64,000 nt of DNA from Thermoplasmatota archaeon (GTDB lineage: Archaea > Thermoplasmatota > E2 > JACPAO01 > JAHFTW01): positions 40,774-104,773 of the forward strand of contig JBFIHX010000005.1 in NCBI GenBank assembly GCA_041601615.1. The letters are read 5' to 3'. Every line of letters begins with the position of its first letter. Within the stretch, counting starts at the first letter, position 1. A model generated the notes under the pieces. It made no database searches. It worked only from the letters and a program-made list of their open reading frames with translations, and was not told the DNA's origin. Made by a program: the position numbers and the translations under genes. Positions 10,891 through 33,829 of the stretch are shown piece after piece.

Positions 10891-10960
10891 GCTCGCAGCC
10901 TAGTCGACGCACTCAAGCATGGCGTCTTCGACGCCCGCCAGAGTCGGCACCGCCGACTCC

Positions 10961-10996
10961 GGCGAATTGGAACGCGTCGCCAAGTCTGCACGCTAG
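10961..10996 (+). repeat. Echo copy of the rps7 3' end (encodes [11 protein letters not shown]) about 70 nt downstream of the real stop
   Basis: Real end is ...gacgagcttgagcgcgtcgccaagtctgctcgctaa ([11 protein letters not shown]). Echo is ggcgaattggaacgcgtcgccaagtctgcacgctag. Most differences are synonymous. Confidence 0.6.
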
Positions 10997-11020
10997 AGCC
11001 TCGGCGTCTTCGAGAAAAAC

Positions 11021-11065
11021 ACCTTCACCCTCCTCTTCCAATCCTCTTTCCTTCGCTCCTATTTT
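11021..11065 (+). terminator. C/T-rich tract after the rps7 echo
   Basis: accttcaccctcctcttccaatcctctttccttcgctcctatttt. Confidence 0.2.
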
Positions 11066-11126
11066 GGGGTCGCTTGAAATGTGCGGCCCAATGTTCTTCG
11101 CCGTCGGCGCACGCCGGCAGGATGGG

Positions 11127-11540
11127 ATGAAGATGCACGAAACAACCACCGTGCGGTGGGTCCTCGTCGTGGACGATGATCCATTGCATCGGCTGCTGAT
11201 GAGAGACAGCGTAGAGCAAGCTGGGCCAACGAACACTTGGGTGCTGGAAGCGCCCGACGGAGCCACCGCTCAGTCGATTCTGGCAAAATTGCCTGCTCGC
11301 GCGGTGTTTCTCATGACGGACCGCAACATGCCGGGATCGATCCATGGAGACGCCCTTTTGGAAGGCCATCTTGCGCGCGGCGGAAGTGGAGTCTTGGTTA
11401 CTTCGGATGCACGATTCGTGGGGCATTCTCCTTACTGCATCCAGAAACCCGATCACATGACGGGCTGGGCCGAGCTTGGACGGCGAATCTTCACGGGTCC
11501 TCCGACCCATGCCTGGGCTCCATTGCTCATGTGTGGTTGA
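11127..11540 (+). CDS. Stand-alone response-regulator receiver (CheY-like REC) domain protein
   Basis: VLVVDDDPLHRLLMRDSVEQ...VFLMTDRNMPG... carries the REC acidic pocket and phospho-acceptor Asp context. Start ambiguous between 11064 and 11127. Confidence 0.5.
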   Translation: MKMHETTTVRWVLVVDDDPLHRLLMRDSVEQAGPTNTWVLEAPDGATAQSILAKLPARAVFLMTDRNMPGSIHGDALLEGHLARGGSGVLVTSDARFVGHSPYCIQKPDHMTGWAELGRRIFTGPPTHAWAPLLMCG

Positions 11541-11754
11541 TGAGGTGGGCTGGTGGCGCTGGTTGTTGCGGTCAGGGGTTTCCCGCGTCAAGGATGGGGG
11601 TGGAATGGGGCCTTGGGGCGCCGTGCTTCTTGTCCCGTGGCCCGGAGCGTCGAAGTCGCGGCTAAGTATCTCCGGATTAGATAGATCGGGATAGATAGAT
11701 AAGAACCACAGCCATCAGCCTAAAACGTACTGAACATTGTGGGACGCGATCGTC

Positions 11755-14700
11755 ATGCGAAAAATCATGGTCGTTTTCCTCGCTCTGCTGCTTCTGGCCA
11801 CTCCGTTGGCCGTTGCCCACAAATCCAACCACGAGATGCAGCACCAGGCGTGCGACGTGATGTGGATGACGCCCCATGGGCATGGCCCAGACGACGGCCA
11901 TCGACACGAACACGACCCGGACATAGCCGGCCCGGAGCACAAGGATCTGCACAACCACGACCCTTGCAACCAGAGCCGAATGACCTACCCGGACTACGAA
12001 AGTGTCGCGCCCATCACGGAAATAGATCCGCCGACCAAGGAGTTGGATCCGGAAGAAATCATCTGGAACGACAACGACGCGACCAACTCCGAGGTGTACA
12101 TCGGAGGCGAAGCGTACCAATTCCCCATCGCTCCCGGAACGTTCCAGGAGATCGATTCGCTGGTCATCAGCAGCAACGCTGACGCCGCTGCCCTCGCCGC
12201 CGCCGGAGTCATCAGTGGCACCGGCGACGAGGACGACCCTTACGTCATTCAGAACCTTATCGTGGGTCGTGCACTCATCATCAGTGACACGGACAAGTGT
12301 TTCGTGGTCAAGAACAACATTGTTGTTGATCGCGTGGTCGAAGCGCCCATCGTGCCGGACCCCGACGACCTCATTAATGTCACCAAGTTGATTCGTGAGC
12401 TCATCGAATTGATCGACGGGCTCCTGGCAGACATTGCCGAATACTTGGGCATCACGGAAGAACTGGAAGCGGCCCGCGCCCTCTGGGACGAGAACGCCAC
12501 AATCTGGGAAAACGAGAAGCTTGTGTGGGATGCCGAAGCGGCCGCCAAGCAAGCGCAATTGGCCAACATGAACGCCCGGTCTGCCTCCTACGACGCCCAA
12601 CTAGCGCAATGGCAACAGGATATCGCCAATTACGAGGGCAATTACCTCAATTCGATTGGCATCACTGAGCAACTCGCCTCCGACTTTGAATACTACATGG
12701 AGCAAATCCTCGGCTTCGACCCCACAACCGTGACGCAGCCGACCAAGTCGCACCAGCAATTCATCAACAACGGCCAAGTAGTCGACATAGGCGCGCTCCA
12801 GGACAGCTTCGAATCCTACCAGGACGATGCCAGCAAACTCATTGGCGCCGTCAGCGAGACCGGTCAGAATCCCTCTGAGACCAACTTTGACGTGCGCGAC
12901 ATGATCGACGAAAACCCGCCCGGTGCGACCCCGCCGGCCGGCTACTCCGGCTCCGACTGGAGCTCCGATTTGGCGCAATACGACGACTACCGTCAATGGA
13001 TCTTGGACGAAGTGACCAGCTACTGGGGCACCTTGAAGGCGGACGAGCCGGATTACGATGGTTTTGCCGCGTTCATGGAGGAGTACAATGGATTCCAGGA
13101 GGAGTACGCTGCCTTCATGGGAGAATACAACAGCTTCACGGCCAGCCACACGGCCTTCCAGAACGACTTCAATGCCTTCATGGACGACTACAGCAGTTTC
13201 CTCGCCTCGAACGCCGCATCCCTGGACGAATACAACGCCCTGATTGCCGACGCCGAGGCCGACATCGCGGACGCAGAAGCGCTCATCGACACCGTGCAAG
13301 GATTCGCCTGGAAACTGGGCGACCTCTTGTTCGAAACCATCGATCAAGTCCTAGAGCACCTCTTGACGCTCATCTTCGGCCTCATCGACCCACACGACCC
13401 GCACGAAGTGGCCAACAACAACGGCCAATTGGTGCTTGACTGGAACGGCCAGTGCCTGCACGTCTACAACAACGTGATCAACGACTTGCGCGTCAACCAG
13501 AACAACGATCGCACCGGCTTTGCCACCGGGGGCATCCTGGAGAACAATCGCATCTTTACGATTGGCCAGATCCGCCACTACGACGGCATCTTCCGCGACA
13601 ACGAAGTAGGCAACCGAGCCCACTTGTACAGTCTGATTGATCCGAACATCACCGCGCCGACAAACGACCAGTCGGTCAACAACGATGGCGCCAACCAAGG
13701 CTGGTACTTTGACAACGTCATCTACGGACAAGTGGACCTTGACTTCCACGGACACCACCACTCGGCGGGCTTCTTTGCCCCCGAGAGCCACTTCCATGGC
13801 TCGGTGTACCGTGAAGCCTACATGGTCAACACCGACGGTTCCTGCAAATTCACCCACGACGATCTGATGCCGATGCCCGGGCACCACCAGATGCACGAGA
13901 GCGACAACGACTTCGAGGTGCTGGGCGAAACCATCATTGATGGCCCGGACAACGAACCTTGCCTGCCGCATCATGACCACGGCAAGCGCTGGACATCCGT
14001 GTTTTTCAACGACAATGTGATCATTGATCCAAACGGGCTTGGTCTGCGTTTCGAAGACGAAAACCACCGCGCCGACGACGAGCAAGCGAACTCGGAGAAC
14101 ATGCGCGAGCTCAAGAAGCCGCACTTCCACCAGAAGTGGGTCCAAGTGGAAAACAACACGGTCGTGGGCAAAATCTTCATTGATGTTCTCAACGCCAAGG
14201 GCACGTTCCTGTGGAGCGACGACTGGAGCGAGGTGGAGAACACGGCCGGCATCGAACGCAGCATCGAGGCGTTGGATCACCCGGGTGCTCGCATCGCCTA
14301 CAGCCACCCGATGCGCAACGACGCCTGGCTGGATATCCAAAACAACACGGTGCTCCAGACGCAGAGTGTTGGTGTCTTGGTGTCGGATGCGGAGTTCATG
14401 ACGAAGCTTCAGTTGAACAACAACCGCGCTGTGGGCGCGCCGACCTCGATCTCGGGCTACAGCTTCGAAGCGCTGCGCGATTGGCTCTGGAATGCCCGGT
14501 ACGCTTCGGCCGCCTCGATTGCGGACGACGTGGACGACATGGGTTCCGGTGACCGCGGCGTGCAGAACTTTGTGCTCGTGCGCAATGCAATCGACAAATT
14601 CAACGTAGTCTTCTGTGGCAACACGCTGCACCGCTTGGACGGCAGTCTTGTGGCAACGGATCGGATCTACCAGGACGGTGCCAGCACCATCGATTACGAC

Positions 14701-14925
14701 TGTACCTCGGACAACGACGATGATGGTCTCAAGGCCAATGAATTGGGCACGGCTGCTTCGCCGCTCGTTGCTTGGGTGCCTGCGCCGGATCGGGCTCGGT
14801 TCACGGACGGGTTGCGCGAGTTGACGCACGACACGGACTCGTTCTACCTCCTGGAACTGGCGTTTGACATGGCCGACGCATTGCTGCCGGCGCACCCGGA
14901 AGACGCGCTCCCGGTGGAGACGTGA
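11755..14925 (+). CDS. Large, highly acidic secreted protein (about 1,056 aa), hypothetical
   Basis: Signal peptide MRKIMVVFLALLLLATPLAVA. Extremely Asp/Glu- and His-rich, with coiled-coil-like repeats (EYNGFQEEYAAFMGEYNSF...). No recognised catalytic motif. Confidence 0.6.
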   Translation: MRKIMVVFLALLLLATPLAVAHKSNHEMQHQACDVMWMTPHGHGPDDGHRHEHDPDIAGPEHKDLHNHDPCNQSRMTYPDYESVAPITEIDPPTKELDPEEIIWNDNDATNSEVYIGGEAYQFPIAPGTFQEIDSLVISSNADAAALAAAGVISGTGDEDDPYVIQNLIVGRALIISDTDKCFVVKNNIVVDRVVEAPIVPDPDDLINVTKLIRELIELIDGLLADIAEYLGITEELEAARALWDENATIWENEKLVWDAEAAAKQAQLANMNARSASYDAQLAQWQQDIANYEGNYLNSIGITEQLASDFEYYMEQILGFDPTTVTQPTKSHQQFINNGQVVDIGALQDSFESYQDDASKLIGAVSETGQNPSETNFDVRDMIDENPPGATPPAGYSGSDWSSDLAQYDDYRQWILDEVTSYWGTLKADEPDYDGFAAFMEEYNGFQEEYAAFMGEYNSFTASHTAFQNDFNAFMDDYSSFLASNAASLDEYNALIADAEADIADAEALIDTVQGFAWKLGDLLFETIDQVLEHLLTLIFGLIDPHDPHEVANNNGQLVLDWNGQCLHVYNNVINDLRVNQNNDRTGFATGGILENNRIFTIGQIRHYDGIFRDNEVGNRAHLYSLIDPNITAPTNDQSVNNDGANQGWYFDNVIYGQVDLDFHGHHHSAGFFAPESHFHGSVYREAYMVNTDGSCKFTHDDLMPMPGHHQMHESDNDFEVLGETIIDGPDNEPCLPHHDHGKRWTSVFFNDNVIIDPNGLGLRFEDENHRADDEQANSENMRELKKPHFHQKWVQVENNTVVGKIFIDVLNAKGTFLWSDDWSEVENTAGIERSIEALDHPGARIAYSHPMRNDAWLDIQNNTVLQTQSVGVLVSDAEFMTKLQLNNNRAVGAPTSISGYSFEALRDWLWNARYASAASIADDVDDMGSGDRGVQNFVLVRNAIDKFNVVFCGNTLHRLDGSLVATDRIYQDGASTIDYDCTSDNDDDGLKANELGTAASPLVAWVPAPDRARFTDGLRELTHDTDSFYLLELAFDMADALLPAHPEDALPVET

Positions 14926-15413
14926 GCGGTTCCGGTTCCTTGTCCTCCATTTTTCCCGTTCCGGGACTGCTTCTTGGCTTGGCGGCGGTGGCGTTGCTTG
15001 TGACGGCCTTGCCGGGCATTCCGGTCGTGGAGCCGGAGGAGGGCTTTGCTGTGTTTCACATGAACAGCGCTCTTGCGGAGGGCAATTCCAAGTTCCAGGA
15101 GATCTTTGTCGTGGACCGGGTGGCGCCGGATTTGGCGGCAAACATCGAGGGCGTGGAGATGTTTCTGGATGGCGAGCCGTTTGCCGTGCTGTGGGAGCCG
15201 GCGTCGGGGCCGTTGCAGCGCAATGCGACGTTTTCGTTTGTGATGGAGGCGTTTGACCAGCAGCAGGTGTTGACTGCGAAGTGGCAGGGCGAGGAAGTGA
15301 TGCGCTGTCAATTTGGAGGCGGTGCCGGTTTTGCGGGGCTGCATCCGGATGAGCTTCGCAGCATGGGTCAGGGGCACAAGATTCGTTGCCTGGATGGGGC
15401 CGCAGACGGCTGA
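14922..15413 (+). CDS. Small membrane-anchored protein, translationally coupled to the acidic protein (GTGA overlap)
   Basis: N-terminal TM segment (LLLGLAAVALLVTAL). GTG start overlaps the upstream TGA. Confidence 0.4.
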   Translation: MSGSGSLSSIFPVPGLLLGLAAVALLVTALPGIPVVEPEEGFAVFHMNSALAEGNSKFQEIFVVDRVAPDLAANIEGVEMFLDGEPFAVLWEPASGPLQRNATFSFVMEAFDQQQVLTAKWQGEEVMRCQFGGGAGFAGLHPDELRSMGQGHKIRCLDGAADG

Positions 15414-15740
15414 TTGGTCCGAGCGGGCCCGAAGGATGGGGTACGGTTGCTGTGTTCGCAGCGAGTGCCTTGCCGGCGGCCTCGTTTCAAACGAGGCGGG
15501 CTTGTTGCTTCGTGCTGGTGCGTTCGGCGGCGTCGCTTGCGGCGTGACCGTGGCTTGGGGTGGGGCAGGAGCGGATGGGGAATTGTTGCGGGGCTGCAAG
15601 GCGGTTGGGTGGGGGTTGCGCGGTTCTTCGTCGGAGCACGAAGGACGGGTCGCTCGCCGCAACGCTCGTTGCGTATCGTTCCCGAGGCCACCGCGGGTGG
15701 CCGCAAGGAGCACAGATGGGCTGGCAATTCAGTCCGGAAC

Positions 15741-15778
15741 ATGGGGTGAAGGAGAGGGGGAAGTGGAGAAGGATTCGG
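15741..15778 (-). terminator. Polypyrimidine tract on the minus strand (purine-rich on plus strand) just past the end of the giant-protein operon
   Basis: Plus strand ggggtgaaggagagggggaagtggagaaggattcggg, located after the stop of the 15786..16910 gene. Confidence 0.2.
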
Positions 15779-15785
15779 GCCTGGC

Positions 15786-16910
15786 TTAGATAAGCGCCAT
15801 TTGGTAGCCGTTGCCGGTTGCGGCTTGGTGTTCAAGGGTGTACAAGTGGTACATGTGGCCCTCGGCAACACCCATGTTGTTGACGTCGAACACGAAGATC
15901 AGGAACTCGATGCCGTTGTTGATCACGGCAAAGTTGGCGCTGCTTGGGACCGATGCTTCGAGCACTGCCCGCTTGGCGCACGCGGTCAAGTCGGTGTCGC
16001 AGCAGCGGTTTGGATCCAATTGGCAGGGCACATGCATGGCCCAGGCGAGCGGCAGGACGGGAGCGTAGAGCACTTCGACGTTGATGGTGTCTGTGCGGCT
16101 CTTGCCGGGCACGCATCCAAAGAATTCAGCATCGTATTCTAGGCACACTTGTGCGCTGGCAATGGATTGGACGTAGCCCGTGTCGGCGGCGGCTTGCACT
16201 TGGAATCCGTGTGCTTCGTGGACGAACTCCAGCATGAATTTGATGACGATGTTGCAGATTCCGGGTTGCCCTACGATGCCGAAGCCGATGCGGTCGTCAC
16301 GGAAATCCATGAGATTTCCGGCGGTTTCGTTGTCGTGGTTGCCGCCCTTGGTGTAGCGCTCTAGGGAGTTGAGCGCCAGTGTGGGTGCAAGCATGTCGTG
16401 GACTTGCCCATCGATGCAGTCTGCTTGTAGGGTGACAAATTCCATGCCGCGCGAGGTTTGTCGCGCGGTCCACTGGTTGGTGCCTGTGGGTTGGGGAGCC
16501 TCGCCTGCTTCTCGATCCAAACTTGGGAACCATCCGTCTCCAGGTTCGATCCAGAATGCGATGGGTTTGAACATATCCGCAGTAATGTGGACCGTGCCGT
16601 TGACAAAGCCTCGTTGTTTTTCTTGCAGTTGCGGCAGCAGGGCATCGGTGGGTGCGTGGGCGATGCCGCTGTCGCGAAGATCTTCGACATCCTGGGCCAT
16701 GGGGTCGTCGGGGGTTCCCATGGTCAGATCCTGACCTATGCGGCTGATGGTCCAATCGATGGTCGTTTGGGATGTCTCAAGCACGGAGCGTTCCAGTTTT
16801 TGTGTGCTGGATGGGTTCAGCTTGAGGGCCACGCCGGTTACGAGTGGGACCGCGAGTGTGGCCGCGACCAGGAGGGCGAGTGTCATCTTTTGTTTCTGAT
16901 TCATGTTCAT
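15786..16910 (-). CDS. Secreted protein (374 aa), hypothetical; coupled to the giant protein by an ATGA overlap
   Basis: Signal peptide MNMNQKQKMTLALLVAATLAVPLVTGVA. Its ATG overlaps the TGA of the 4,717-aa ORF (caATGAacATGA on the minus strand). Confidence 0.55.
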   Translation of the reverse strand: MNMNQKQKMTLALLVAATLAVPLVTGVALKLNPSSTQKLERSVLETSQTTIDWTISRIGQDLTMGTPDDPMAQDVEDLRDSGIAHAPTDALLPQLQEKQRGFVNGTVHITADMFKPIAFWIEPGDGWFPSLDREAGEAPQPTGTNQWTARQTSRGMEFVTLQADCIDGQVHDMLAPTLALNSLERYTKGGNHDNETAGNLMDFRDDRIGFGIVGQPGICNIVIKFMLEFVHEAHGFQVQAAADTGYVQSIASAQVCLEYDAEFFGCVPGKSRTDTINVEVLYAPVLPLAWAMHVPCQLDPNRCCDTDLTACAKRAVLEASVPSSANFAVINNGIEFLIFVFDVNNMGVAEGHMYHLYTLEHQAATGNGYQMALI

Positions 16911-22900: not shown

Positions 22901-25900
22901 GTGGGGAAGGCCTGCGAGGTTTCCGGGGTGCAGGGTGGCTGCGCTGCGGTTTTGGGCGGTGACGAGGAGGTCATCCAAGGTATCGAAGGTGAGGTCGCGC
23001 ACGAGGTAGGCGTATTGGGTGACGAGGGGCCATTGGAGGGTGTTGTGGATGCTGGCGGCTTTGGTTTGCTCGGCGGGTGCCTCTTGCCAGCCGCTTCCGG
23101 TGTCAACGTGGGTGACGGTCCAGAGTACGCGGGACTCGGTGCCGGTGGTGAATTGGAAGTTGTGTGTGGCTTCGCCGTTGGGGTTTTGGACTTCCACGGT
23201 GGCGATGCGCCCGGGGGTGCCCAGGAGGCCGGTTCGGTCGGTGGTGTTGAGTGCTTGGAGGGCGGTGATGAGGGCGTCGAGGGTGGTGGCTTCGGGCAGG
23301 TCTACGCTGGTGTTGTAGAATGTGCCTTGGAGTCGCACTTGTTGCACGGTGGCGGCTGTGTGGATGTCGAGGCGCACATTGGCGTCGGCCGGGGCGGCGA
23401 GGTCTACGTCGCTGGCGGGGATCATGCCGTCGGCGGCGATGGTGGCGGCGAGTGCTGCGATGTCGGTGGGTTGCCAGGGGGTGCCGTTGTGGCTGAGCGC
23501 TTGGGTCTGGCCGCCGCTGGTTCCAGGAGCGGTGAGGGCGGCAAGGAGGGTGTTGTTGCCTTGGGTGGGGTTGGCGAAGGTGCCGGTGCGGATGGTGGTG
23601 GCGGCATTGATGGTGTTTTCTTGTACGCGGTCGCGGGCGGCGGCGGGGGTGGTGGGTGTGAAGGGGTTGGGGGTTTGGATGCGGTCTTCGACGGCTTCTA
23701 GGGCGATGCCGACGGCGGTGTCGGTGATGCGGTTGTTCCAGAGCAGCATGTCGGAGGCGCCGGAGAGGCCGGTGACGGAGAATCCGGATTGGCGTGCTTC
23801 GGTGACGGTGTTGTCGCGTACGAGGCCGTGGCTGTCGTGGAGGATGGCGGCGGAGCGCAGCATGCGGTCAAACAGGGTGTTGTGGATGCGTACGTCGCTG
23901 CCGGTGGCGAGGATGCCGAGGGTTTGGTCGGCAAAGGCGCAGTGGCGCACGCGCACGGTGGCGTGGGCGGCGAGGATGCCGAGGTGGCCGGGGCGTACGA
24001 TCCAGCAATCGGCCAGGTCGAGTGTGCCGCCGCGTACTTCGATGCCGGCGGCGAGGCCTTGGGCGCGCACGCCGGTGCCTTGCAGGGTGCCGGTGACGTG
24101 GACGGGGAAGCCGTTCAGGCCGGCTGCGGGGGCTAGTGTGGCGTTGATGAGGTGGAGGATTCCTTGGACTTGGAGGGTGCAGGTGCGTCCGCCGCAGTCG
24201 GAGGCAACGAAGTCTACACCGGTGAAGGTTCGTTCGTCGCCGGCGGGGATTACGAGGTCTTGGTCGAGGAGGATGGGGCCGGTGTGGAATTCGAGTTGGG
24301 TGAGCGTCAGGTCGGAGAGGAACGGCGCGGTGCTTAGGTCCCCTTGGTAGGCGGCGACGCGGATGGGGTCGCCGTTGCTGGTGACGGGGGTGGGCATGAT
24401 GCGGTGGATGTTCCAGGTGGCGTTGGCCCAGTCGTCGCCGACCAATTGGGTGGCGAGTTGGAACTGCGGCGCGAGGTGGGTCACGTCGAGGAATGCGAGT
24501 CGGGAGCCTTCGGAGTCGCCGGCAAATCCTGGTGCGGCGCGGGCGGCGAGGGGTTGCCAGGGTCCGGTGCCTTGTTGTGCCATGAATTGGGCGTGGGTGC
24601 CGGTGGGCAGGTCGTATTCGTGGGCGAGGACGAGGCCGGCTAGGGCTAGGTCTGCATCGATTTCGATGTGGGCGAGGGGCAGGATGGGCGAGGCGCCGAG
24701 GGGAGTTTCTTGGCTGCTGCTGTTGAGCGGGGTGATCTTGATGGCGGTCACGGGCACGGGGTTGAGGTCGGTGCGGGGGATGCTGTCGGCGGCGCCTGCG
24801 ATTTCTAGCAGGGTTTGTTCGATGAGGGGGCGCACGTCGAAGCCTTGGAGGCCGAGGCCGGGGGCGGCGGGGGTGATGCTGCGGCTGGCAAGGAATGGGG
24901 TGATGGGGGTGTTGGATCGGGGTGTGTCTGCGAGACGCATGGGGAGGGTTTCGCGCTCGGTGCGGGCGGGGACGGTTTGGCCGTATTCGTTGGTGCACCA
25001 GAGGCCGACGCGCGTCGGGGGCGTGGCGCCCGTGGCTCCGTTGCGGGTTTCGTTGTGGAGGGTGCCTGCGGGGCCGCCGTTCCAGGGGAGGGTGTGGCTG
25101 ATTTCGCGTTCGAGGTGGGGTGCCGTGTCGTGGTCCGTGGAGGGGTCGATCCAGCAGGTTTCGCCGTCGGCGGTGGTGGTTTTGGTGGTTTGGACGGTGC
25201 CGGTCTCGTCGCGCACGAGGTGGTCGGGGTTCCAGCGGCCGTAGATTTGGGAGGATGTGATGGCGGCGTCTTTGGCGCCGACGCTGCGGCCTTCGTGGCC
25301 CATGTGGCCAAGGGCGCTCAGATCACCCGCGTCGAAGCGGAAGGAGTCGGCTGCGGCGGCGGGGTGGGGCACTTTTTGGCCGGCGACGTTGGTCCAGTAG
25401 GGGTTTGCTTCGAGGTGGTCGCGGACGTTTTTGGCAAACAGGGCGACCACGTCGCGCAGGGCTTCCAGTAGCTCGGCATCGTCGGCGCCGCTCATCCATT
25501 GGGTGCGGTAGAATGCCTCGAATTCGCTGTGGGTGCCGGAGGAGCTGAACCAGGAGTCGGGGTCGTAGTCGACGGGCACGGTGGCGACGTGTTGGAGGCG
25601 GTCGTCGCGGGTGGTGAGGGTGTGGGTGGTGCCGTCGAGTTTGTAGGTCATGGGGGTGCCTTTGCCGAGGCCGAATACGGTCATGGCGAGGGCTTTGCCG
25701 TCGACGACGAGGGCGTGGGTGCCGGTTTCGTCTTGGTAGGTGGTGGCGTGGTTGGTGCCGGCGAGTGCGCTCCAGGCTTGTTCGATGGGGTGGTTGGTGT
25801 TGCAGGCGGCGCCGTTGACTGGTCGGCCTCCTTTGCAGGCGATCCAGTTGTCGAGGTCCACGGCGAAGGTGCCGGGGTGCCAGAGGGGGTGGACGGTGCG

Positions 25901-28900
25901 GCCCATGTCGTTCCAGAGTGCTTGGCGGGGGCCGTGGAAGTCCATGGTGGCTTCGAGTTGGTAGTGCCAGCCGTTGGTGTCGCCGCAGTTGGTTCCCGTG
26001 GGGAGGGGGTCTTGGAAGGCGCTGACGTTGTGGACGGTGGCGCCGCGTGCGGCGTAGTATGCTTCGATGGCGGCGATGCGTTGGCTTGCGGTGGTGGATG
26101 CGGTGAAGGTCTCCCAGGGCGCGGTTTGGCATCGGACGCCGTCGCGGGTCCATGTGACGTTGGTGCCGGTTTCGAGGGTGGTCCAGCCGCCGTTGTTGCT
26201 GCCCCAGAGCAGGTTGTCGTTGGCGGTGTCGGCGGTGCCGATTTCCTGGTCCCAGCGGTTGCTGCCGGTGGATGTCCAGGGGCAAGTGGTCATCCAGCGT
26301 GGCGTGGATTCGAGGTTCCAGGGCACTTGGCTGTCGCTGTGGCGTTCTTCGCAGGTGCGGTGGTGGGTGCCGAGCAGGAAACTGGTGTCCTGGTGCATGT
26401 CGGAGAGGTAGCTGCGGTCGACGCGGACGGTGGCGGGGGCAAACCATTCGAGGGCGTTTGCGTCCACGGCGGGGTTGGCTGCGACGGCGGTTGCGTAGTT
26501 GGTGGCGGTGGCAAACAGGGGTGTTGCAAGGTGTTTGGCCCAGTCGGCTTGCCAGCCGGATGCGGTGCCGTCGACGAAGCCGGTGTCGCGGGGGCGGATG
26601 ATGGTGCTACCAAGGTTGGGGTCGTAGGCTCCGCTGCCGTCTGCTTTGGAGGTCCAGCCGGTGCCTTCTTCGAGCACATCGAGGCAGCGGAGGGCGTTGC
26701 TGGGTAGGTCGCGGGCGCAGGCTTCGGAGGCAACGAGCATGGCGCCGTCGGCGCTGCGCACTTCGAGTCGTCCGGGGGCGGTGTCGAGGATTTTGTCGTC
26801 GTCCCAGACTTGGACGTTGGCTTCGAAGAATTCGGGTTGGATCCAGGCGTAGCCGGCGCTGGACATGGCGTCAACGTCGGGGGTTTGGGTTTCGGTGTCC
26901 CAGTAGGCGATGCCACGGGCGAAGCGGGCGCGGTCTACGTTGGGGTGGATGGGGGCAAGGTAGGCGTCGGCGGCTGCCCAGCGTTCGCCTGCAAGGTTGG
27001 CGTCGCTGGCGTCGACTCGGGGCAAGTCTTGGGAGTCGGCGAGAGGTTCGTGGACGAAGCTGTCGCGGTAGCCCCAGGCGTCCAGTGCGAGCGCGGGTCG
27101 GTCTAGTTGGGCATAGGCCAGTGGCAGCATTTGGTCTTCGGCGGCTTCGCGCACCAAATCAAGCGCGGAGGCTTGGCCTATGCTGCTGGAGCCGTCGAAT
27201 CGGATGTCGGAGAGTGCATCGATGGATGCTAGGTGGGCAAGCAAGGGGTCCAGGAAGCCGCTGCTGGTGAGGCCGAACGGGATGATGGTGTAGGTAATGA
27301 AGCCGTGGTCGCGGTCGTGGCTGCGTTGGCGTGATTGCATCAGGACGTGGCCGCTTCGAGACAAGGAGACGGTGTCGCCCAGTGCGGGGTCGGAGAGTCC
27401 GGGAATGGTGGTGCCGCTGGTGGCCACGGGTGTGCTGTTGCGGTCCTCGAACATTCGGTCGCTGACGTCGCGGGGCAGGTCGGTGGGTTTCTTTTCCAGG
27501 ATGTAGACGCCGTCGCCGTCGGAGGTGGGAACGATGATGCGGCATTCGGCTTCGGTGACTTCGATGCAGACCACGAGGATGGCGGCTTCTAGGTGGGCGT
27601 CGAATTCGTGGGTCATGACGGTTTCTTCGTTGGGTTGCGGGACGTTGAATGTGTACATCTTGCTGCATGCCGGGAGGGTCGGTTGCAGGCCCAGTACGGC
27701 GGCGTTGCTGGGTTCCATGCGCAGTACGAGTTGGTCGGGGATGCCGTCCGTGGTGCCGGCGGCGAGCAATGCGTCGATGTGTGCGGCGCTGTTGCCGCTG
27801 TAGAGCAGGTTGCGGACCGTGCTTGCGCTGGCGCCATGGCCGGCGCCCAAGTCGCAGGAGTCTGCTGCGGGGCCGGTGCGCATGGGCAGGGCGGTTTGTC
27901 CGGGTCGGGCAAACAGAGCGGTGGGGGGATCATTGCCGGTGCTGCCTTTGAGGGTGTCTTGGGCGGTTCCGAGTGCGAGGGGTAGGCGGTCGGGGGAGGC
28001 GGTTTGGAGGCCGCCGTCGAGGCCGGGGATGGGGGTGCCGTACAGGCCGTAGAGGGGGTTGGGTAGTTGGTGTAGGCTCGCGACGGTGGAGGGTGTGATG
28101 CTGGCTGGAATGGATGCGAAGTGGTCGCCTTCCATGTTGTCTAGGTAGCGCCAGTGCACGGCGGTGGCTAGGGGGTAGCTGCGTTCGATGCCGTAGTAGA
28201 CGAGTGGGTATGTGGGAAGCAATTCTGGGGTCTCGCTCGTGTCCTGGGATGGCAGTCGTGGATCTACGAGGGGTAGGGGGTAGGAGACCTCCGGTAGGCG
28301 CAGATTGTTGGGGTCGATCTGGAACATGGGCAACGGGATTTCCTGGTACTCGGAAGGGTCCACGTTGACGCCGGTGGTCAGCAATTCTTGCCAGTCCACG
28401 GATGGCGTTTCGATGGCGAGTTGCCACAGGTCGCCTCGGGGCGCTGTGAGTGCGATTGAGTCTGGGCGTTGCGGGTAGGCGCGTGGGCCCATGGTGTTTG
28501 TTGCGCCGCCGCTGACGCTTGCGTCCGGCGTCGATACATCCTTTGTTTTTTCCTCGAAGTAGGGACTGAAAAACGGCACGATGTCGTAGGAGAGCGGCAA
28601 AGAGGCGTGGAAGCGGGCGATGCCGGCGGCGTCCGTGTCGGCCCAGTGGGCGCAGACGTTGTGGTCGTTGATCTCCATCATGGTGCTGCGAACCTCGTGG
28701 AGGTCCTTCAGATTCAGAGGGGTTGCCAGGCATACGGCGGTGCCGGGTACTGGTGTGTCGGGGGCGACGAATCGGTGTACGTCTAGGGCGGTGCCGACGG
28801 AGATGCTGAGCGGTAGGCGCAGGCTCGCCGCGTTGGGCGTGGAGATGGTGATGTCGCCTGCGTACATTCCGGGCAGCAGCCAGGGGCTGGGCGGATTCGA

Positions 28901-31045
28901 CTCGCCAGTGGCTTGTCCGAGCGTGGCCGTGGGGTCGTCGGCGCCGGGCGCTACTTTTTGGGTGGGGACTGCTGCGAGCCCGAGGGTGACGATGGCGATG
29001 TCGTCGAGTTCGTTGCCGTTCGTGTCGCGGGCTTTCGTGACGTCGGTTTCTCGCACTTGGACACGGAAGTGGGGGCCCGTGTGGTCGTCGACGAGTTCCA
29101 GGGCTTGCCCTTGTTCGTGCATGAACAGGCGCCATTGTTGTTCGGTGTTCAGGCTCCATTGCTCGGGTTGGGCATTGAGAGCGGCGACTACTTGGGGTCG
29201 GCCGACCACGACGTATTGCAAGAAGCCGGTGGCTTCGCCGAGCCAGGCGTCGTATGGCGAGAACTGGATCTGATCGCCTCGGGAAAAGACGCTTGGAAGG
29301 GGAGCCGGCGCTAGGTCGTCGGAGTCTAGGTAGCCAACGCCGCGGGTCCAGGGAGCGCTCTCCATGGGTTCGGCTCGCAGCGCTAAGACACCCATCAATT
29401 CCTGGGCGTGCCAGGGGCGGGAGGCGGTGTGTACGGATTGGCGCAGGGTCGCAAACGCCTGGGCCACGCGCAGGGAGGCGCCCATGCTGTTGTCCATCAT
29501 CGTGGCGGAGCGGTCCATGGAGGGGGCGCCCGTGACGGAAATAGCGCCGGCGGCGTCGGTGTAGTCGCTGTCGAAGGGGGACGGGGAGGCCACGAAGTCG
29601 ATGCCGGTGCCGTGGATGGCGGCGCGGCGTGAGGGGCCCAGGCAGCTATCGATGTTGGTTCCGGCGCGGTCTCCTGCGGCCACAGTGACCACACCAGGAA
29701 TGTCGTTGATGCCCACCATGGTCATGAATTGGCCGGGGATGGTGGCGCATTCGTCGGCTGGGGCGATGAAAGCGACTCCGGCGTCTCCGAGGTTGCGCAC
29801 CGCCTTTTGCAGGTCTTCATCGAATGCGAGGTCGGCCAGATACGATTCGACTAGGGCTCGCAATCCAGGGGAAAGTGAGTCTTTCTTGGCCTTCAGAACA
29901 TCAGCAAGATCCTTTTCATTGGTGCCGCCGAATTGGAATCCGGTGCGCCAGACTTCCTCCAGAACACTAGTGACTCCGAGTTGCGCAAGTTCGTCTTGGT
30001 TCTGCCAGGTGTTGGAGCTACGCGGGTCGCCTCGGGCGTCCAGCATCGGGGTGTCGGCAAAATGGAACGCGGGTCGCAGACTGTTTTGGACATTGGCCGG
30101 CAGGTGGATGCTGCTGGGGAGTCCCCAGATTGCAACTTGGACGCCGTTTTGGAAGGCGCTTTTTGCGCTCAATTCGGCGTAGTCGAGGCCATTGCGGATG
30201 GCGTCCCGCTCCAGGGCTCCGGTTTGTTGGTCGATGGCGCCCACGAATAGGACTTGGAATCCGGCCTCGGAGAGGCTCTTGGCCAAGGCGTGTCCTACGA
30301 ATGTCAGCGGTTCGCCGAGGGCGGTTTTGTCGCCGCGGGATGCGAGGAACGTGCCGAATCCGCTCTTGTAATGGGGTAGGTAGGGAAGGGATTCTGGGTT
30401 GGCTAGCGTGATGCCGGCAAGGTCGTCTTCGTCCAGGAAATCACCGAACAACAGCACAATGGGTCGATCCTGCACGGCGCCGGCAAGGTGCTCTAGGGTG
30501 TCTACGGCTGCGTCGACGGGCGCGCCTTGATCCCGGGTCGAGGCGGTGGGGATCCATTCGAAACCAGTGGGGTTCCAGGTACGCTCATCCACTTCCTGTT
30601 GAACCTGCGCAAGCGAGGGAGCTTCGACCCACAGGGGGGTCATGGCGCGGTCCGAGGAGCCGTCGTTCCAATGCACTTCCAGAGCGAGGTAGTGAAGGCC
30701 CGGTGGCGTCGCGGTCCATGCAGCAACTTGCCCGCCGGGAATAGCTTCGCCGTCCACCGTCCAAGCCAGGGAACTGACGGAGTCGGCGGGGGATGGGTTG
30801 GCGCGAGCCGAAAAAACGGTCCCTTCTAGCCCCCAGCTTCGATCCACCGTAAATCGAGCCACATGCGGATCGCTTGCCACGTCTGACGCGGAAGGGGCCA
30901 GGTATGGAGCGTCGGCGCGGGATCCGGGCTCTGCCCCGGGCGCTTGCGCGATGGTCACCGTGGCGAACATGGGTAACACCATGGTCAAAACCAGCATGAT
31001 CGCAAGATTGGTTGCGGCACTCGTTCGGGGGGCGTTGTACTTCAT
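16907..31045 (-). CDS. Giant extracellular protein (about 4,712 aa) with a right-handed parallel beta-helix, many Ig/Big-like repeats and a C-terminal LamG/concanavalin-like region
   Basis: Uninterrupted 14.1-kb ORF. Signal peptide at ATG 31045 (MKYNAPRTSAATNLAIMLVLTMVLPMFATVTIAQA). Beta-helix repeats (...VRVRHCAFADQTLGILATGSDVRIHNTLFDRMLRSAAILHDSHGLVRDNTV...). No obvious C-terminal TM or PGF-CTERM anchor. Confidence 0.85.
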   Translation of the reverse strand: MKYNAPRTSAATNLAIMLVLTMVLPMFATVTIAQAPGAEPGSRADAPYLAPSASDVASDPHVARFTVDRSWGLEGTVFSARANPSPADSVSSLAWTVDGEAIPGGQVAAWTATPPGLHYLALEVHWNDGSSDRAMTPLWVEAPSLAQVQQEVDERTWNPTGFEWIPTASTRDQGAPVDAAVDTLEHLAGAVQDRPIVLLFGDFLDEDDLAGITLANPESLPYLPHYKSGFGTFLASRGDKTALGEPLTFVGHALAKSLSEAGFQVLFVGAIDQQTGALERDAIRNGLDYAELSAKSAFQNGVQVAIWGLPSSIHLPANVQNSLRPAFHFADTPMLDARGDPRSSNTWQNQDELAQLGVTSVLEEVWRTGFQFGGTNEKDLADVLKAKKDSLSPGLRALVESYLADLAFDEDLQKAVRNLGDAGVAFIAPADECATIPGQFMTMVGINDIPGVVTVAAGDRAGTNIDSCLGPSRRAAIHGTGIDFVASPSPFDSDYTDAAGAISVTGAPSMDRSATMMDNSMGASLRVAQAFATLRQSVHTASRPWHAQELMGVLALRAEPMESAPWTRGVGYLDSDDLAPAPLPSVFSRGDQIQFSPYDAWLGEATGFLQYVVVGRPQVVAALNAQPEQWSLNTEQQWRLFMHEQGQALELVDDHTGPHFRVQVRETDVTKARDTNGNELDDIAIVTLGLAAVPTQKVAPGADDPTATLGQATGESNPPSPWLLPGMYAGDITISTPNAASLRLPLSISVGTALDVHRFVAPDTPVPGTAVCLATPLNLKDLHEVRSTMMEINDHNVCAHWADTDAAGIARFHASLPLSYDIVPFFSPYFEEKTKDVSTPDASVSGGATNTMGPRAYPQRPDSIALTAPRGDLWQLAIETPSVDWQELLTTGVNVDPSEYQEIPLPMFQIDPNNLRLPEVSYPLPLVDPRLPSQDTSETPELLPTYPLVYYGIERSYPLATAVHWRYLDNMEGDHFASIPASITPSTVASLHQLPNPLYGLYGTPIPGLDGGLQTASPDRLPLALGTAQDTLKGSTGNDPPTALFARPGQTALPMRTGPAADSCDLGAGHGASASTVRNLLYSGNSAAHIDALLAAGTTDGIPDQLVLRMEPSNAAVLGLQPTLPACSKMYTFNVPQPNEETVMTHEFDAHLEAAILVVCIEVTEAECRIIVPTSDGDGVYILEKKPTDLPRDVSDRMFEDRNSTPVATSGTTIPGLSDPALGDTVSLSRSGHVLMQSRQRSHDRDHGFITYTIIPFGLTSSGFLDPLLAHLASIDALSDIRFDGSSSIGQASALDLVREAAEDQMLPLAYAQLDRPALALDAWGYRDSFVHEPLADSQDLPRVDASDANLAGERWAAADAYLAPIHPNVDRARFARGIAYWDTETQTPDVDAMSSAGYAWIQPEFFEANVQVWDDDKILDTAPGRLEVRSADGAMLVASEACARDLPSNALRCLDVLEEGTGWTSKADGSGAYDPNLGSTIIRPRDTGFVDGTASGWQADWAKHLATPLFATATNYATAVAANPAVDANALEWFAPATVRVDRSYLSDMHQDTSFLLGTHHRTCEERHSDSQVPWNLESTPRWMTTCPWTSTGSNRWDQEIGTADTANDNLLWGSNNGGWTTLETGTNVTWTRDGVRCQTAPWETFTASTTASQRIAAIEAYYAARGATVHNVSAFQDPLPTGTNCGDTNGWHYQLEATMDFHGPRQALWNDMGRTVHPLWHPGTFAVDLDNWIACKGGRPVNGAACNTNHPIEQAWSALAGTNHATTYQDETGTHALVVDGKALAMTVFGLGKGTPMTYKLDGTTHTLTTRDDRLQHVATVPVDYDPDSWFSSSGTHSEFEAFYRTQWMSGADDAELLEALRDVVALFAKNVRDHLEANPYWTNVAGQKVPHPAAAADSFRFDAGDLSALGHMGHEGRSVGAKDAAITSSQIYGRWNPDHLVRDETGTVQTTKTTTADGETCWIDPSTDHDTAPHLEREISHTLPWNGGPAGTLHNETRNGATGATPPTRVGLWCTNEYGQTVPARTERETLPMRLADTPRSNTPITPFLASRSITPAAPGLGLQGFDVRPLIEQTLLEIAGAADSIPRTDLNPVPVTAIKITPLNSSSQETPLGASPILPLAHIEIDADLALAGLVLAHEYDLPTGTHAQFMAQQGTGPWQPLAARAAPGFAGDSEGSRLAFLDVTHLAPQFQLATQLVGDDWANATWNIHRIMPTPVTSNGDPIRVAAYQGDLSTAPFLSDLTLTQLEFHTGPILLDQDLVIPAGDERTFTGVDFVASDCGGRTCTLQVQGILHLINATLAPAAGLNGFPVHVTGTLQGTGVRAQGLAAGIEVRGGTLDLADCWIVRPGHLGILAAHATVRVRHCAFADQTLGILATGSDVRIHNTLFDRMLRSAAILHDSHGLVRDNTVTEARQSGFSVTGLSGASDMLLWNNRITDTAVGIALEAVEDRIQTPNPFTPTTPAAARDRVQENTINAATTIRTGTFANPTQGNNTLLAALTAPGTSGGQTQALSHNGTPWQPTDIAALAATIAADGMIPASDVDLAAPADANVRLDIHTAATVQQVRLQGTFYNTSVDLPEATTLDALITALQALNTTDRTGLLGTPGRIATVEVQNPNGEATHNFQFTTGTESRVLWTVTHVDTGSGWQEAPAEQTKAASIHNTLQWPLVTQYAYLVRDLTFDTLDDLLVTAQNRSAATLHPGNLAGLPHTLLPDGTLAVHGNTSLIALGTDLEPGIRYEFATRTSTGQIDNQGLSSERLVKLPDVPEGVTIHIQGRAVDPTGTTGPWTGSRILVDRTRPVLELNAGCLSGSDAGIYYRSYDPRGNWGTDPAYRASGIAELQVLATGAISNQTYPLLNPTFNDQQNLWTLPPEAYVDGESYSIQGHIIDHAGHAAIASIQNVVVDTSGPRLLGLGSTEGLLPDPNSTTPSYLGTKDLAPDGSLQVQFLVDDRPIDAERTHNCGIEEATLEYRVSGAGIWRPLDHQSPTIGTATTVLTGTINSTVVQSVLGRHLEFRVWAKDRAGHQTENTTGRIIVDTEAPLPLNIHAGDFLCLGPNNNQPIEWGAKDWKPSGSASAYEPSGIKQARLIMVHLNRTMEVLATIHHTANELNLESHQFDALTRDQIAKTFLVVDAQDRAGNGMQYTPAYLQGLGATHFEALRQASYKIHFDNDAPQIRVNSNFNYGVGLWENYPNTHIPLPTNGQLPNKDLAFLYDLVEPAETCFVDQFRIHISDEGNYNQLANHTQNINDWSHAMQVKVPLLPSLVGNITAHIQVWDQANNTATKTVNLGDPDPNPPLLSPTLGPQGVCYRSGYGQFGYAMSDNQSPHYLNLREREQGLGGIWSLAQNNTIVDWSGDFPRIAAFHTPSGASRDVFYALRGADTAGNIATTNNSWGRASIDADAPELEWLQPTTTGFFDPTNGLQAQWQATDAALLHCNGVVSGSIHLTSPLGTTTAWNGSLSDTGLGAQAPPGEPFTLSHAELATYEGMPITFNGTVVDHAGWSTEQTIGPFIPDDTAPVIDPLPTLPLYTGPNGFLLAWTPIDPIPGPGRAASGIASSHAIASNGDPIFGGQTQAESGQPLMPPTTRSGATVNVSVQAIDNVTHETTYNLGSVQTDFDVPGYELIPKTTICSGPQTGPINVTYSGWDTGSGLDDLRLLRVLSNLAVEPVHSTTEPHYAPEWSENATIDPWQWGEDIYLLLVDGYDMVQNGEHWTQVQLQNMPEEERNILLSGATLVVVDRRHPLGNPLPGLDGFFREVGNNIQAMGEAIGYRPIIAAGQLVSGGCEAITFELFLQTTDGSDTEPIQTQSGNQTLTIHETIHLNDTKYTRFHGQEVQLVLHGQDGAGHTWTNHSSAFVIDLVAPAIQDPPSLPALIGAAGINQTWTALDDQGAVDTGITWNAIELRPDANSTPLITAGPGTLLDIPAELENQALQAYVRVLDGAANELEIYLGQVEGDRTAPLLDANSINYESGTVGIDYTLAERNPSHILVQRTSTSGTSNETWTHASRYEDTTPPTNELATYTLCPVDQAGNPGTCQVLEIFVNAELPSIGLLSPSFAGTTRLGSGDLGLPVSGHVASVSTPGTTIWSSETDPGVFTLALEITPPHPDATMDIQATSRLGPISFTSVGSNRYEATIDLDEDQQEEVTLLVTANNGRSTAWRHSFHFAKDGIQPQVAQMQPQGNAHNYYNGYGPDGTSQKLGYTYGGSLHTPLAAHSALLTVTQWSNPGTNPGSTEFLALEGDEGDIAHLRYASNTLTLTVGNQSIAIGNITLKSQWYRFDLIAADGRMEAFLDETYLGSLPLSGPIRLESTRVQSASAMWTAPKVSLLDSDLRNLLEDQPILGGDGWQPIGQGTLQDTNTLGTAGGPTYLSIQPDSGHTLAAKSPPVDLPSSSHLTFRIKAKPAIEDPVFTVRNDDGDMMVRARVRYSTLEVEEGNGNWTILSSVDSRWHRFDIFIRHGHALIQRDQLSSVWVPLHADGPAATVEAGGGANTVDIDRLRIDMDTSRHDHTFVQPLTAFGWSETGSGLKTYAGSGFLGNGYLQVTGATSPGGRTYASFPTTGLGSKYTVEAAFAIGDSLNKPEHQAILSGLKSDDAPRWAVTLGPSQEIDCDAGDWRVHLYNGNTRISEGGVCLKNEKEWHFVRVEVTSTSVAVTLDDDTNSTFTSSITTGSDKRIGVGDVFPSPDAGRSGRGVGWYDDVVAFKRQ

Positions 31046-31140
31046 GGGGACACCGGCCAAGAAACGCCCACCGGGGGCCCGACGCCGCGCATGCGCGATG
31101 GTCGAGACCAGAAGGCTACCGCAACATCCGGGGATGCTAC

Positions 31141-31190
31141 TTATCCCTTCGTTAGATAATTAGGGAACAGGTCATAAAGTTTATCAAAAA
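31141..31190. promoter_or_regulatory. AT-rich patch in the 490-bp intergenic region between the giant-protein gene and fusA; candidate TATA/BRE promoter region
   Basis: ttagataattagggaacaggtcataaagtttatcaaaaacc stands out against the GC-rich background. Confidence 0.2.
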
Positions 31191-31553
31191 CCGGCCGAGA
31201 ACACTGGAAACAAGTTGGTGAAATCGGGTACATCGCAATGGAACCTCGATCTAATTCATGCAGCCCACAAACAACCAATGTTCTACCCCAAGCGCCCCCA
31301 CGGGGCCAGTTTCCTCCAAGAAAACGCCCTCGCCGACTCCATCGTGCGGAAGGCCGCTCGCCCCGCAATTCCGCCACGCGCAACATGGGCCGGCCCGAGA
31401 GCAAAACCGGCCAAAATTGGACGCGATTGGCTCATTTTGGGTATGCGGCCGTACCCATACCCTTTTGCCCCTCTTCGACTCCGCGAACCAAGACCGAGCC
31501 CGGGCCAGGCCCCTCCTGGCACCGTGCCGTAATCGACTCTCGTAGGTGACCCG

Positions 31554-33786: not shown

Positions 33787-33829
33787 AGCGAGGCCCTCGG
33801 GCCGAGCGTCGCTGCGGCCCACTTGTGGG

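Follow-up and report, generated by a model that had tools for sequence, protein, structure and literature searches.

A 20.7-kb block of secreted-protein genes between rps7 and fusA, in a gap of variable content found across a high-GC Thermoplasmatota clade

The DNA analyzed here is a 64,000-nucleotide (nt) stretch of contig JBFIHX010000005.1 from a Thermoplasmatota archaeon (hereafter, the window), in which 20.7 kb separate two translation genes, rps7 (ribosomal protein uS7) and fusA (elongation factor aEF-2). The window is archaeal DNA of high GC content (~62%); among public sequences it comes closest to Thermoplasmatota genomes assembled from sand, soil, and groundwater metagenomes. We consider it reasonably probable that the 20.7-kb stretch is this genome's version of a hypervariable rps7-fusA gap carried by a high-GC Thermoplasmatota clade: a replacement-type flexible island of exposed proteins that is turned over by recombination. 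This reading draws on (i) a clade-wide gap, (ii) turnover of its content, (iii) a giant-plus-partner module that is conserved and occurs in differing contexts, (iv) codon usage that is host-like, and (v) an absence of mobile-element hallmarks from the island.

Five genes occupy the 20,663 nt between the end of rps7 and the beginning of fusA (10891-31553). These are listed below with the flanking genes and the open reading frame (ORF) boundaries.

9803-10231, plus strand: rps12 (uS12); Pfam Ribosom_S12_S23, E 1.3e-44; protein 100% identical to that of the closest relative, L001
10237-10890, plus strand: rps7 (uS7); Pfam Ribosomal_S7, E 8.8e-41; 96% identical to that of L001
11091-11540 (alternative start 11064), plus strand: receiver-like ORF, an orphan receiver-domain gene
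11755-14925 (or 1,062 aa from 11737), plus strand: 1,056-aa acidic secreted protein
14922-15413, plus strand: 163-aa ORF, overlapping the 1,056-aa gene by 4 nt
15786-16910 (or 385 aa, to 16943), minus strand: 374-aa ORF
16907-31045 (or 4,717 aa, to 31060), minus strand: 4,712-aa giant
31046-31451, no strand: divergent intergenic region, specific to this genome, with AT-rich TATA-like stretches upstream of the giant gene
31554-33755, plus strand: fusA (aEF-2), six EF-G/EF-2 domains (Pfam)

Two further overlaps tie neighboring genes together: an alternative GTG start of rps7 at 10228 overlaps the rps12 stop, and the giant stop overlaps the start of the 374-aa ORF by 4 nt. An N-terminal hydrophobic segment is present in all four of the larger island proteins (1,056-aa, 163-aa, 374-aa, and giant), and also in most of the gap proteins of relatives. 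A short repeat of the GATAGATA type (ggattagatagatcgggatagatagataag) occurs at 11680-11710, ~50 nt upstream of the 1,056-aa gene; it could be a promoter or regulator site.

A preliminary description of this DNA, made from the sequence, had named these genes and placed an island of 20 kb between rps7 and fusA, and Pfam matches bear this out. In an independent assembly (Logan, run SRR29257386), these genes recur on a 20,859-nt contig; the 14.2 kb of this contig that were read lead from the rps7 3' end into the giant gene, in the same gene order. A chimera in the deposited assembly is therefore unlikely. Logan contigs of the run (L081 and L083) break inside rps7, at ~10755-10780, which is ~80 nt upstream of the repeated rps7 3' end described below; this break may reflect co-occurring strain variants at the junction.

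The separation of rps7 and fusA extends well beyond this genome. We gathered the surroundings of rps7 homologues at 160 genomic and metagenomic loci and measured the rps7-to-fusA distance in each, calling the genes adjacent where fusA lies within 200 nt of rps7 and treating loci with an S7 less than 61% identical (other Thermoplasmata, Methanomicrobia) as the outgroup. A scan of Joint Genome Institute (JGI) metagenomes contributed two further useful close relatives, L084 and L085. The two genes are adjacent in 115 of 117 informative outgroup loci, and in 3 of 19 informative clade loci; the latter three are borderline, at 61% S7 identity. Among the other clade loci, nine carry both genes on one contig with a gap of 0.8-3.3 kb between them (same position, same flanks), and seven have no fusA within 9-10 kb. 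On these counts, the broken linkage is ancestral for the whole clade and is not specific to this genome. What sets this genome apart is the size and content of the gap, and not the split. Hence the earlier suggestion of an insertion in this genome survives in part: it fails for the split itself (3/19 adjacent), and holds for the content, which differs in every relative.

The closest relative, L001, allows the edges of the variable segment to be placed at nucleotide level. At the protein level, L001 shares 100% identity in S12, 96% in S7, 97% in the aEF-2 N-terminus, 87% in FolD, and 78% in the product of ORF969 (a conserved ORF upstream of rps12; see below). Its nucleotide alignment (blastn) covers window positions 1-1837, 9659-11213, and 31452-31843, such that window 11214-31451 corresponds to 2.2 kb in L001, with breakpoints at 11213 and 31452. 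The rps7-fusA gap of L001 measures 2.6 kb and contains two genes: a receiver gene, and a gene for a 514-aa DUF4382 protein with a lipoprotein-signal-like N-terminus. On the right-hand side, the segment shared with L001 (31452-31843; 91% nucleotide identity) includes the 102 nt upstream of fusA, and a promoter belonging to fusA itself probably lies within these conserved 102 nt.

Gap contents are unlike in every relative examined. An all-against-all BLASTP comparison of gap proteins gives small, lineage-restricted clusters only, and the gap in the window shares just two genes with those of relatives: the receiver gene (L001, L085) and one beta-helix protein (L022). Other relatives carry the following.

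L002 and L003, gap: histidine kinases (L002 5673-7208; L003 6552-7370)
L021, gap: CarboxypepD_reg lipoprotein-like protein
L005, L007, L010, and L018, gap: a secreted family of 340-400 aa
L015 and L020, downstream of rps7: rpl37ae, PKD proteins, and housekeeping genes

Taken across the island and the gaps of relatives, the domains recognized in these proteins are beta-helix, PKD, CarboxypepD_reg, and DUF4382, and the gaps hold receiver and kinase genes too. The 340-400-aa family was considered as kin of the 374-aa ORF product and rejected, the two being unrelated.

The largest island gene encodes the 4,712-aa giant. It contains a beta-helix/NosD-like segment at approximately residues 2339-2483 and no internal sequence repeats. 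Its C-terminus is LamG-like at 20.5 bits, under the Pfam cut-off; this reading rests on the sub-threshold match because a single-sequence AlphaFold2 (AF2) model of the C-terminal 330 aa was unusable (predicted local distance difference test, pLDDT, 37). Relatives of the giant are rare. An exhaustive HMMER search with its N-terminal 1,200 residues recovered just eight among 1.84 billion representative proteins (a word-indexed search with the N-terminal 1,500 aa returned nothing, not even the giant itself). Four of the eight are full-length, at 3,956-5,837 aa, and derive from archaeal metagenome-assembled genomes (MAGs); they are collinear with the window giant at 27-31% identity over most of their length, except for parts of the C-terminal third. 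All named members of the family belong to Thermoplasmata/Thermoplasmatota, bar one labelled "bacterium" and one fragment labelled Halobacteriales.

Elsewhere, the giants occupy different genomic places. The giant P0126 lies at 291-306 kb of the 666-kb contig JAXDQS010000003.1, the rps7-fusA pair of which is found at 0.3-4.8 kb with one 386-aa gene in between. Both P0126 and a second giant, P0125, are embedded among histidine-utilization genes (arginase-family, hutI, HAL, urocanase), while a third, P0123, stands beside DUF373 and MptE-like genes, which also occur near P0126. None of these neighbor genes is present in the window. Several ORF products that accompany the giants show weak but significant and recurrent similarity to the 374-aa partner: (i) a 390-aa ORF directly downstream of the giant in L166 (24% over 256 aa, E 2e-6), (ii) a 660-aa ORF two genes downstream of the giant in L169, and (iii) a 389-aa ORF ~3.6 kb upstream of the giant in L169 (E 0.002). 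No similarity to the partner was detected for the 409-aa ORF that immediately follows the giant in L169. Judged by these similarities, the giants and the partner-family ORFs near them appear to make up a conserved module whose genomic location differs. Since giant and partner adjoin histidine-utilization genes in other Thermoplasmatota, the pair in the window has probably been either relocated or acquired from a related lineage.

The second large island protein, of 1,056 aa, is strongly acidic (D+E 17.1%, K+R 5.4%). It combines a hydrophobic N-terminus with segments rich in His, a middle part resembling a coiled coil, and, on the C-terminal side (residues ~545-900; window 13372-14469), a predicted beta-helix domain that carries the invariant His motifs GQIRHYDG, HGHHHSxGF, and KPHxH. 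When used as sole query, the protein matched itself only; a two-sequence profile of its conserved half uncovered a family of more than 170 proteins of ~530 aa that correspond to the C-terminal domain and have no Pfam domain. Members with a named organism are archaeal and mostly from Thermoplasmatota, with one exception that is labelled only "bacterium"; one member, P0110, is probably a paralogue from this genome. An AF2 model built from 75 sequences (pLDDT 77.5) predicts a right-handed beta-helix, for which Foldseek gave generic beta-helix enzymes (E >= 0.09) and no specific kin in the PDB. Downstream of rps7, L022 encodes a protein 39% identical to the 1,056-aa one, and members of the ~530-aa family occur in unrelated contexts too. 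A family member in L022 has a multicopper oxidase gene nearby, a hint that the domain may bind metal. The 163-aa ORF downstream of the 1,056-aa gene has no family match in Pfam, NCBIfam, or PHROG, and PDB sequence searches with the giant, 1,056-aa, and 374-aa proteins gave nothing usable.

The receiver gene is the one island gene that is shared with L001, and it is inside this gene (at 11213) that nucleotide synteny with L001 stops. The window ORF matches Response_reg at 22.2 bits, under the Pfam cut-off of 30.2, in an alignment restricted to profile positions 1-62 of 111. In its sequence DDD, the Asp of LMTDRNMPG, the Thr of VTSD, and KP can be made out, and its 53%-identical homologue in L001 scores 35.1 bits, above the cut-off. 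A third homologue, in L085, is 51% identical over 61 aa. Two-component genes recur in the rps7-fusA gaps of relatives and also a few kb from giant homologues (L166 3452-5295, L170 5463-6020); the receivers near giants are not close homologues of the window receiver, and the recurrence could be chance.

Codon usage was compared by correlating the relative synonymous codon usage (RSCU) of each gene with that of the core genes of the window, which themselves range from 0.89 to 0.975. The large island genes are host-like (giant, r = 0.92; 1,056-aa gene, r = 0.905), and the 163-aa and 374-aa genes, taken together, give 0.88. The receiver gene deviates, with r = 0.47 and a GC content at third codon positions (GC3) of 0.64. 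Thus, of the foreign codon usage that the preliminary description proposed to look for in the island, it is this gene—common to L001—that provides an instance, and the two large genes do not. Searches for signs of mobility were negative throughout: (i) no integrase, transposase, Cas1, or viral family matches any island ORF (Pfam, NCBIfam, PHROG), (ii) no tRNA was found, (iii) no Rfam family was found in the window or around the rps7 3'-end duplicate described below, (iv) no repeats link the module edges (11541-11760, 15400-15800, 31040-31560), and (v) a scan of viral contigs yielded no viral relatives. Non-coding DNA in the interval comes to ~1.3 kb in four pieces, limiting the room for hidden remnants, and the integrase remnants that had been anticipated at the island edges were not encountered. 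Host-like codon usage, together with the lack of mobility hallmarks and of edge repeats, makes the surface-protein block look unlike a recently integrated mobile element, and more like native-style genes that have been moved or exchanged among related lineages.

The left flank of the island carries two structures at the rps7 3' end: a hairpin around the stop codon, and a short downstream duplicate ("echo") of the gene end. Comparable structures follow other genes of the window, and all are listed here.

10858-10920, plus strand: rps7 stop-codon hairpin, comprising the last 11 rps7 codons, the stop in the loop, and an inverted copy at 10888-10920
10964-10996, plus strand: rps7 3'-end echo, with the same C-terminal residues and stop in the +1 frame, followed by a CT-rich tract
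33830-33859 (region 33726-33859), plus strand: fusA echo, 25/30 match at an offset of 74 nt; PYAPEYYAG-stop vs the real PYPPEYYAE-stop
41682-41860: echo of a class II aminoacyl-tRNA synthetase (aaRS) gene, 18 codons or more, in which all differences are synonymous (CGC to AGG among them)
51161-51484: polB tandem-repeat variant, three tandem units of 113 nt

The two arms of the rps7 hairpin match at 24/33 positions. The minimum free energy (MFE) fold of 10852-11000 reaches -70.1 kcal/mol (z = -4.25; 0/200 shuffles as stable), and the stem appears in both the MFE and the centroid structure. The same hairpin, with a different sequence, is found in L001, L005, L008, L022, and L023. The echo, which the preliminary description had pointed out, is real: 10864-10889 recurs at 10970-10995 with two mismatches (0 matches in 100 shuffles), and the real end and the echo both encode the same 10 residues plus stop. 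The duplication spans 27-33 nt, with 106 nt from one copy to the other, and the pair lies wholly on the left side of the island. There is no third copy near fusA, the best match elsewhere in the window being 21/33.

Comparison with relatives bears on the age of the echo. L001, which lacks the island, has the echo, and its copy matches the real rps7 end of the window at 27/27 positions; synteny between the window and L001 (87%) continues through the echo into the receiver gene. This argues that the rps7 echo is older than the island and is not its edge. The former proposal of the echo as the left island boundary must hence be dropped, all the more as similar echoes follow three other window genes. 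Relatives carry an (E)RVAKSAR-stop echo at a distance of 50-110 nt behind rps7: L001, L008, L022, and L023 have an intact copy, that of L005 lacks its former stop, and the copies of L002, L015, L017, and L025 are degenerate. Differences between echo and real end are almost all synonymous, including switches between TCN and AGC serine codons, and the frame of the echo relative to rps7 varies. Strong hairpins co-occur with echoes, and echo-less loci have weak hairpins. L001 further exhibits a mosaic rps7: the body of the gene resembles that of the window (85-97% across most 60-nt windows and 82% in the final one), while the last 11 codons and the 3' spacer (5800-5905) are L084-like (80% to L084 1391-1462, vs 35% to window 10858-10963). 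It is these codons and the spacer that have been replaced between the window and L001, and the alignment shows a recombination junction within the 3' end of rps7, where the repeated segment begins.

A scan of 28 coding sequences found echoes behind four (rps7, fusA, the class II aaRS gene, and polB), each repeating the last 9-18 codons plus stop 75-200 nt downstream. The real ends of rps7, fusA, and the aaRS gene are each directly followed by an inverted copy, placing the stop codon in a long hairpin; in fusA, this inverted copy precedes the echo. The fusA echo is absent from five relatives. Another tandem array, of 94-nt units (2.4 copies, 92% matches), lies at 59813-60038. RNAalifold, applied to eight 3' regions, yielded the stop-codon hairpin and nothing else, since the spacers cannot be aligned with one another. 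A miniature inverted-repeat transposable element (MITE) family was rejected as the source of the echoes, the spacers not being repeated elsewhere, and we do not claim an attenuator-like switch: pairing between echo and inverted copy is clearly above shuffles only in L022, and by ~2 sd in L023. Candidate origins for the echoes are (i) replacement of a gene end by that of a diverged allele, (ii) tandem duplication followed by replacement, and (iii) scars of lost elements. A more far-reaching idea, which we put forward tentatively and think rather unlikely, is that the echoes record an undescribed process in which a conserved gene exchanges its 3' terminus, terminator hairpin included, for that of a diverged allele, with the native terminus left behind, and that the same recombination activity at conserved gene ends drives turnover of the neighboring islands. 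Such gene-end replacement could proceed by way of a tiny non-autonomous cassette, or by recombination anchored in conserved genes. If true, turnover at gene ends would cover the surface-protein gap and the lasso-type cluster on the other side of rps12-rps7 (see below) alike.

We propose the following course of events for the gap. In this clade, rps12 and rps7 have become a free-standing two-gene unit, closed off on its 3' side by a structured hairpin with a CT-rich tract, and fusA appears to be served by an upstream region of its own. Each lineage fills the space between with different genes, mostly for proteins with signal- or lipoprotein-like N-termini, plus genes of two-component signaling. 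In this genome, an older orphan receiver gene would have been kept and two self-contained, host-adapted modules gained: (i) the 1,056-aa acidic beta-helix protein, presumably coupled in translation to the 163-aa membrane or secreted ORF, and (ii) the 4,712-aa secreted giant, presumably coupled in translation to its 374-aa partner. Transfer may have occurred by recombination anchored in the highly conserved flanking genes, as in replacement-type flexible genomic islands. Sequence features and analogy suggest that the products may act at the cell surface or in adhesion.

A number of points count against this account. The genomes compared are of different species or genera, and not strains (the closest shows 96% identity in S7, 87% in FolD, and 78% in ORF969 at the amino acid level). 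That genes were gained here, rather than lost in L001, is an argument from parsimony over 16 loci and 3-4 positions of giant homologues. At the fusA side, no recombination tract has been demonstrated. The proposed surface or adhesin role draws on hydrophobic N-termini, a beta-helix segment, a weak LamG match, and analogy; the homology of the 374-aa partner is weak, at 22-34% identity; and the placement of hut genes in this genome was checked within the window, which is part of a source contig of 200.5 kb.

Other explanations predict different patterns. Were the site a hotspot of site-specific integration, elements (tyrosine-recombinase elements, casposons, or proviruses) would have entered the rps7 3' end, delivered the surface genes, and lost their mobility genes, and the echo would be an att duplicate. 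There is precedent for this: archaeal elements integrate into 3'-distal gene parts and rebuild the reading frame, and ef-2 is a recurrent casposon target in Thaumarchaeota (PMC6563490). The length of the rps7-end duplication (27-33 nt) is typical of att sites, the receiver gene with its deviant codon usage lies next to the echo, and echoes also follow fusA, the aaRS gene, and polB. However, an att pair should bracket what was inserted, and here the rps7 copies are 106 nt apart with the island outside them, and with no third copy near fusA; moreover, the island-less L001 carries the echo. Integrase, transposase, Cas1, and viral family matches are missing from an interval with just ~1.3 kb of non-coding DNA, the large genes are host-like in codon usage, and the module edges have no terminal repeats. 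We regard integration of this kind as unlikely.

In a different scenario, the surface genes already occupied the rps7-fusA gap before the split from L001 and were deleted in relatives, in which case the hut-adjacent position of the giants would be the derived one. Such an ancestral block would fit with the host-like codons of the two large genes, with the presence, behind rps7 in the distant L022, of a protein 39% identical to the 1,056-aa one, and with the great age of the gap itself in the clade. Yet 16 clade loci cover 0.8 kb or more beyond rps7, and all of them lack a homologue of giant or partner; the three independent giant homologues share a hut or DUF373/MptE neighborhood, suggesting that this is the older location; in addition, the ~530-aa kin of the 1,056-aa gene turn up in unrelated contexts. 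We deem the ancestral block unlikely. Finally, an assembly or binning artefact would place genes of another organism or locus between rps7 and fusA. The source is indeed a metagenome-assembled genome, and Logan contigs of the same run break inside rps7 (~10755-10780). Set against this are the 20,859-nt Logan contig, which has the same genes in order over the 14.2 kb read and by its length would reach the fusA start, the match in codon usage between the island and the flanking core genes, and the near-restriction of the giant family to Thermoplasmatota; an artefact is accordingly scarcely credible. A replacement-type island in a clade-wide gap remains the reading that we favor.

The other side of rps12-rps7 is variable as well. 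Window 1838-9658 corresponds to 164 nt in L001 (blastn breakpoints), and the genes that lie there are as follows.

2028-2975, plus strand: HPr-kinase/ScmC-like
3082-3354, plus strand: PqqD, a putative RiPP recognition element (RRE)
within 3285-3830, plus strand: transglutaminase-like protease (Transglut_core3)
3827-4474, plus strand: 215-aa ORF
4700-6586, minus strand: Asn-synthase-like cyclase (Asn_synthase and GATase_7)
6747-8429, minus strand: ABC exporter (ABC_tran and ABC_membrane)
8453-9550, minus strand: NTP_transf_5

A cyclase (C), a protease (B2), a PqqD-like RRE (B1), and an ABC exporter (D) thus stand in one cluster, the combination by which lasso peptide clusters are recognized. 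A lasso-type cluster where the preliminary description placed one, directly upstream of rps12, is confirmed by matches to PqqD, Transglut_core3, Asn_synthase, ABC_tran, and NTP_transf_5. Archaeal str clusters usually carry nusA and rpo genes upstream of rps12. Of 25 clade loci examined, 17 have a homologue of ORF969 (969-1859; a conserved ORF with no assigned function) ahead of rps12, in most cases as its immediate neighbor, and mostly preceded by folD and a glutaredoxin gene (minus strand); lasso-cluster genes are found there in 0/25. Codon usage of the cluster is deviant (RSCU r = 0.495; GC3 0.60-0.71 vs 0.74-0.86). This foreign codon usage indicates a separate insertion that is specific to this genome and probably horizontally acquired. 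A different insertion, of four ORFs, is seen at the same ORF969/rps12 spot in L017 (6100-9540): its three minus-strand ORFs have a GC3 of 0.69-0.76, typical genes of that genome being at ~0.95, and one ORF has a beta/gamma-crystallin domain. Together with the rps7-fusA gap, the lasso cluster and the L017 insertion show that both sides of rps12-rps7 are variable. The view of this region as an integration hotspot is therefore upheld as far as gene turnover on both flanks relative to L001 is concerned, and is not upheld as regards integration of mobile elements.

Several things follow from these results. One Thermoplasmatota clade has dissolved the rps12-rps7-fusA linkage, which is among the most conserved in archaea, and the junction has become a swap site for secreted proteins. 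Two uncharacterized protein families are defined, both from archaeal MAGs only wherever the source organism is named: (i) rare giants of 4-6 thousand residues, each with a similar ORF of 374 to 660 aa beside or near it, and (ii) more than 170 His-rich beta-helix proteins. The window and L001 make a clean genome pair with base-level breakpoints for two independent gains. The island products are candidate surface structures that differ between co-occurring lineages, and might serve in attachment to sand grains or in evasion of viruses.

In its location the island is unusual, and in its kind it is ordinary: it is an instance of the known phenomenon of flexible islands. Replacement flexible genomic islands (fGIs) have a fixed position, encode exposed structures, and lack integrases at their edges, and clusters of giant-protein genes are listed among them (Lopez-Perez et al. 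2014, PMC4033161). Like these, the gap has a fixed position between conserved genes, an unrelated gene set in each lineage, and no integrase or transposase at its edges; also like these, divergence rises towards the island edge, and a recombination junction is found in a flanking gene (PMC4033161). It differs in three respects from replacement fGIs as described in PMC4033161. The class is defined on strains of one species (average nucleotide identity, ANI, above ~96%), and the comparison here is between species and genera only; no case of an identical island in divergent backgrounds was found here; and the flanks are translation genes of the normally uninterrupted archaeal str cluster.

An archaeal parallel is GI1 of Haloquadratum walsbyi, a cell-wall-associated island that ranges from 8.2 to 45.4 kb (Martin-Cuadrado et al. 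2015, PMC4535781). Both are archaeal, vary in size (here from 0.8 to 20.7 kb), and are dominated by secreted or surface proteins, predicted ones in our case (PMC4535781). GI1 includes a very large halomucin-like protein, which parallels the giant described here, and the island is diversified by recombination (PMC4535781). Unlike our island, GI1 has S-layer and glycosylation genes and mobile-element or virus activity, none of which was recognized here (PMC4535781), and the island proteins have no detectable homology with GI1 proteins. The rps7 3' end, in turn, resembles 3'-distal integrations in that a short 3'-end duplicate lies downstream of a reconstituted frame, and in that translation genes (ef-2) are targeted (Krupovic et al. 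2019, PMC6563490). It is unlike them in having only ~70-110 nt of hairpins between the duplicates, with synonymous-site differences; the island lies outside the duplicates, and neither integrase nor casposase is present (PMC6563490). As compared with the canonical archaeal str-type cluster, the order and orientation of rps12, rps7, and fusA are kept, and rps12 and rps7 stay coupled; unlike in that cluster, the fusA of this clade has moved 0.8 to 20.7 kb away, or is unlinked.

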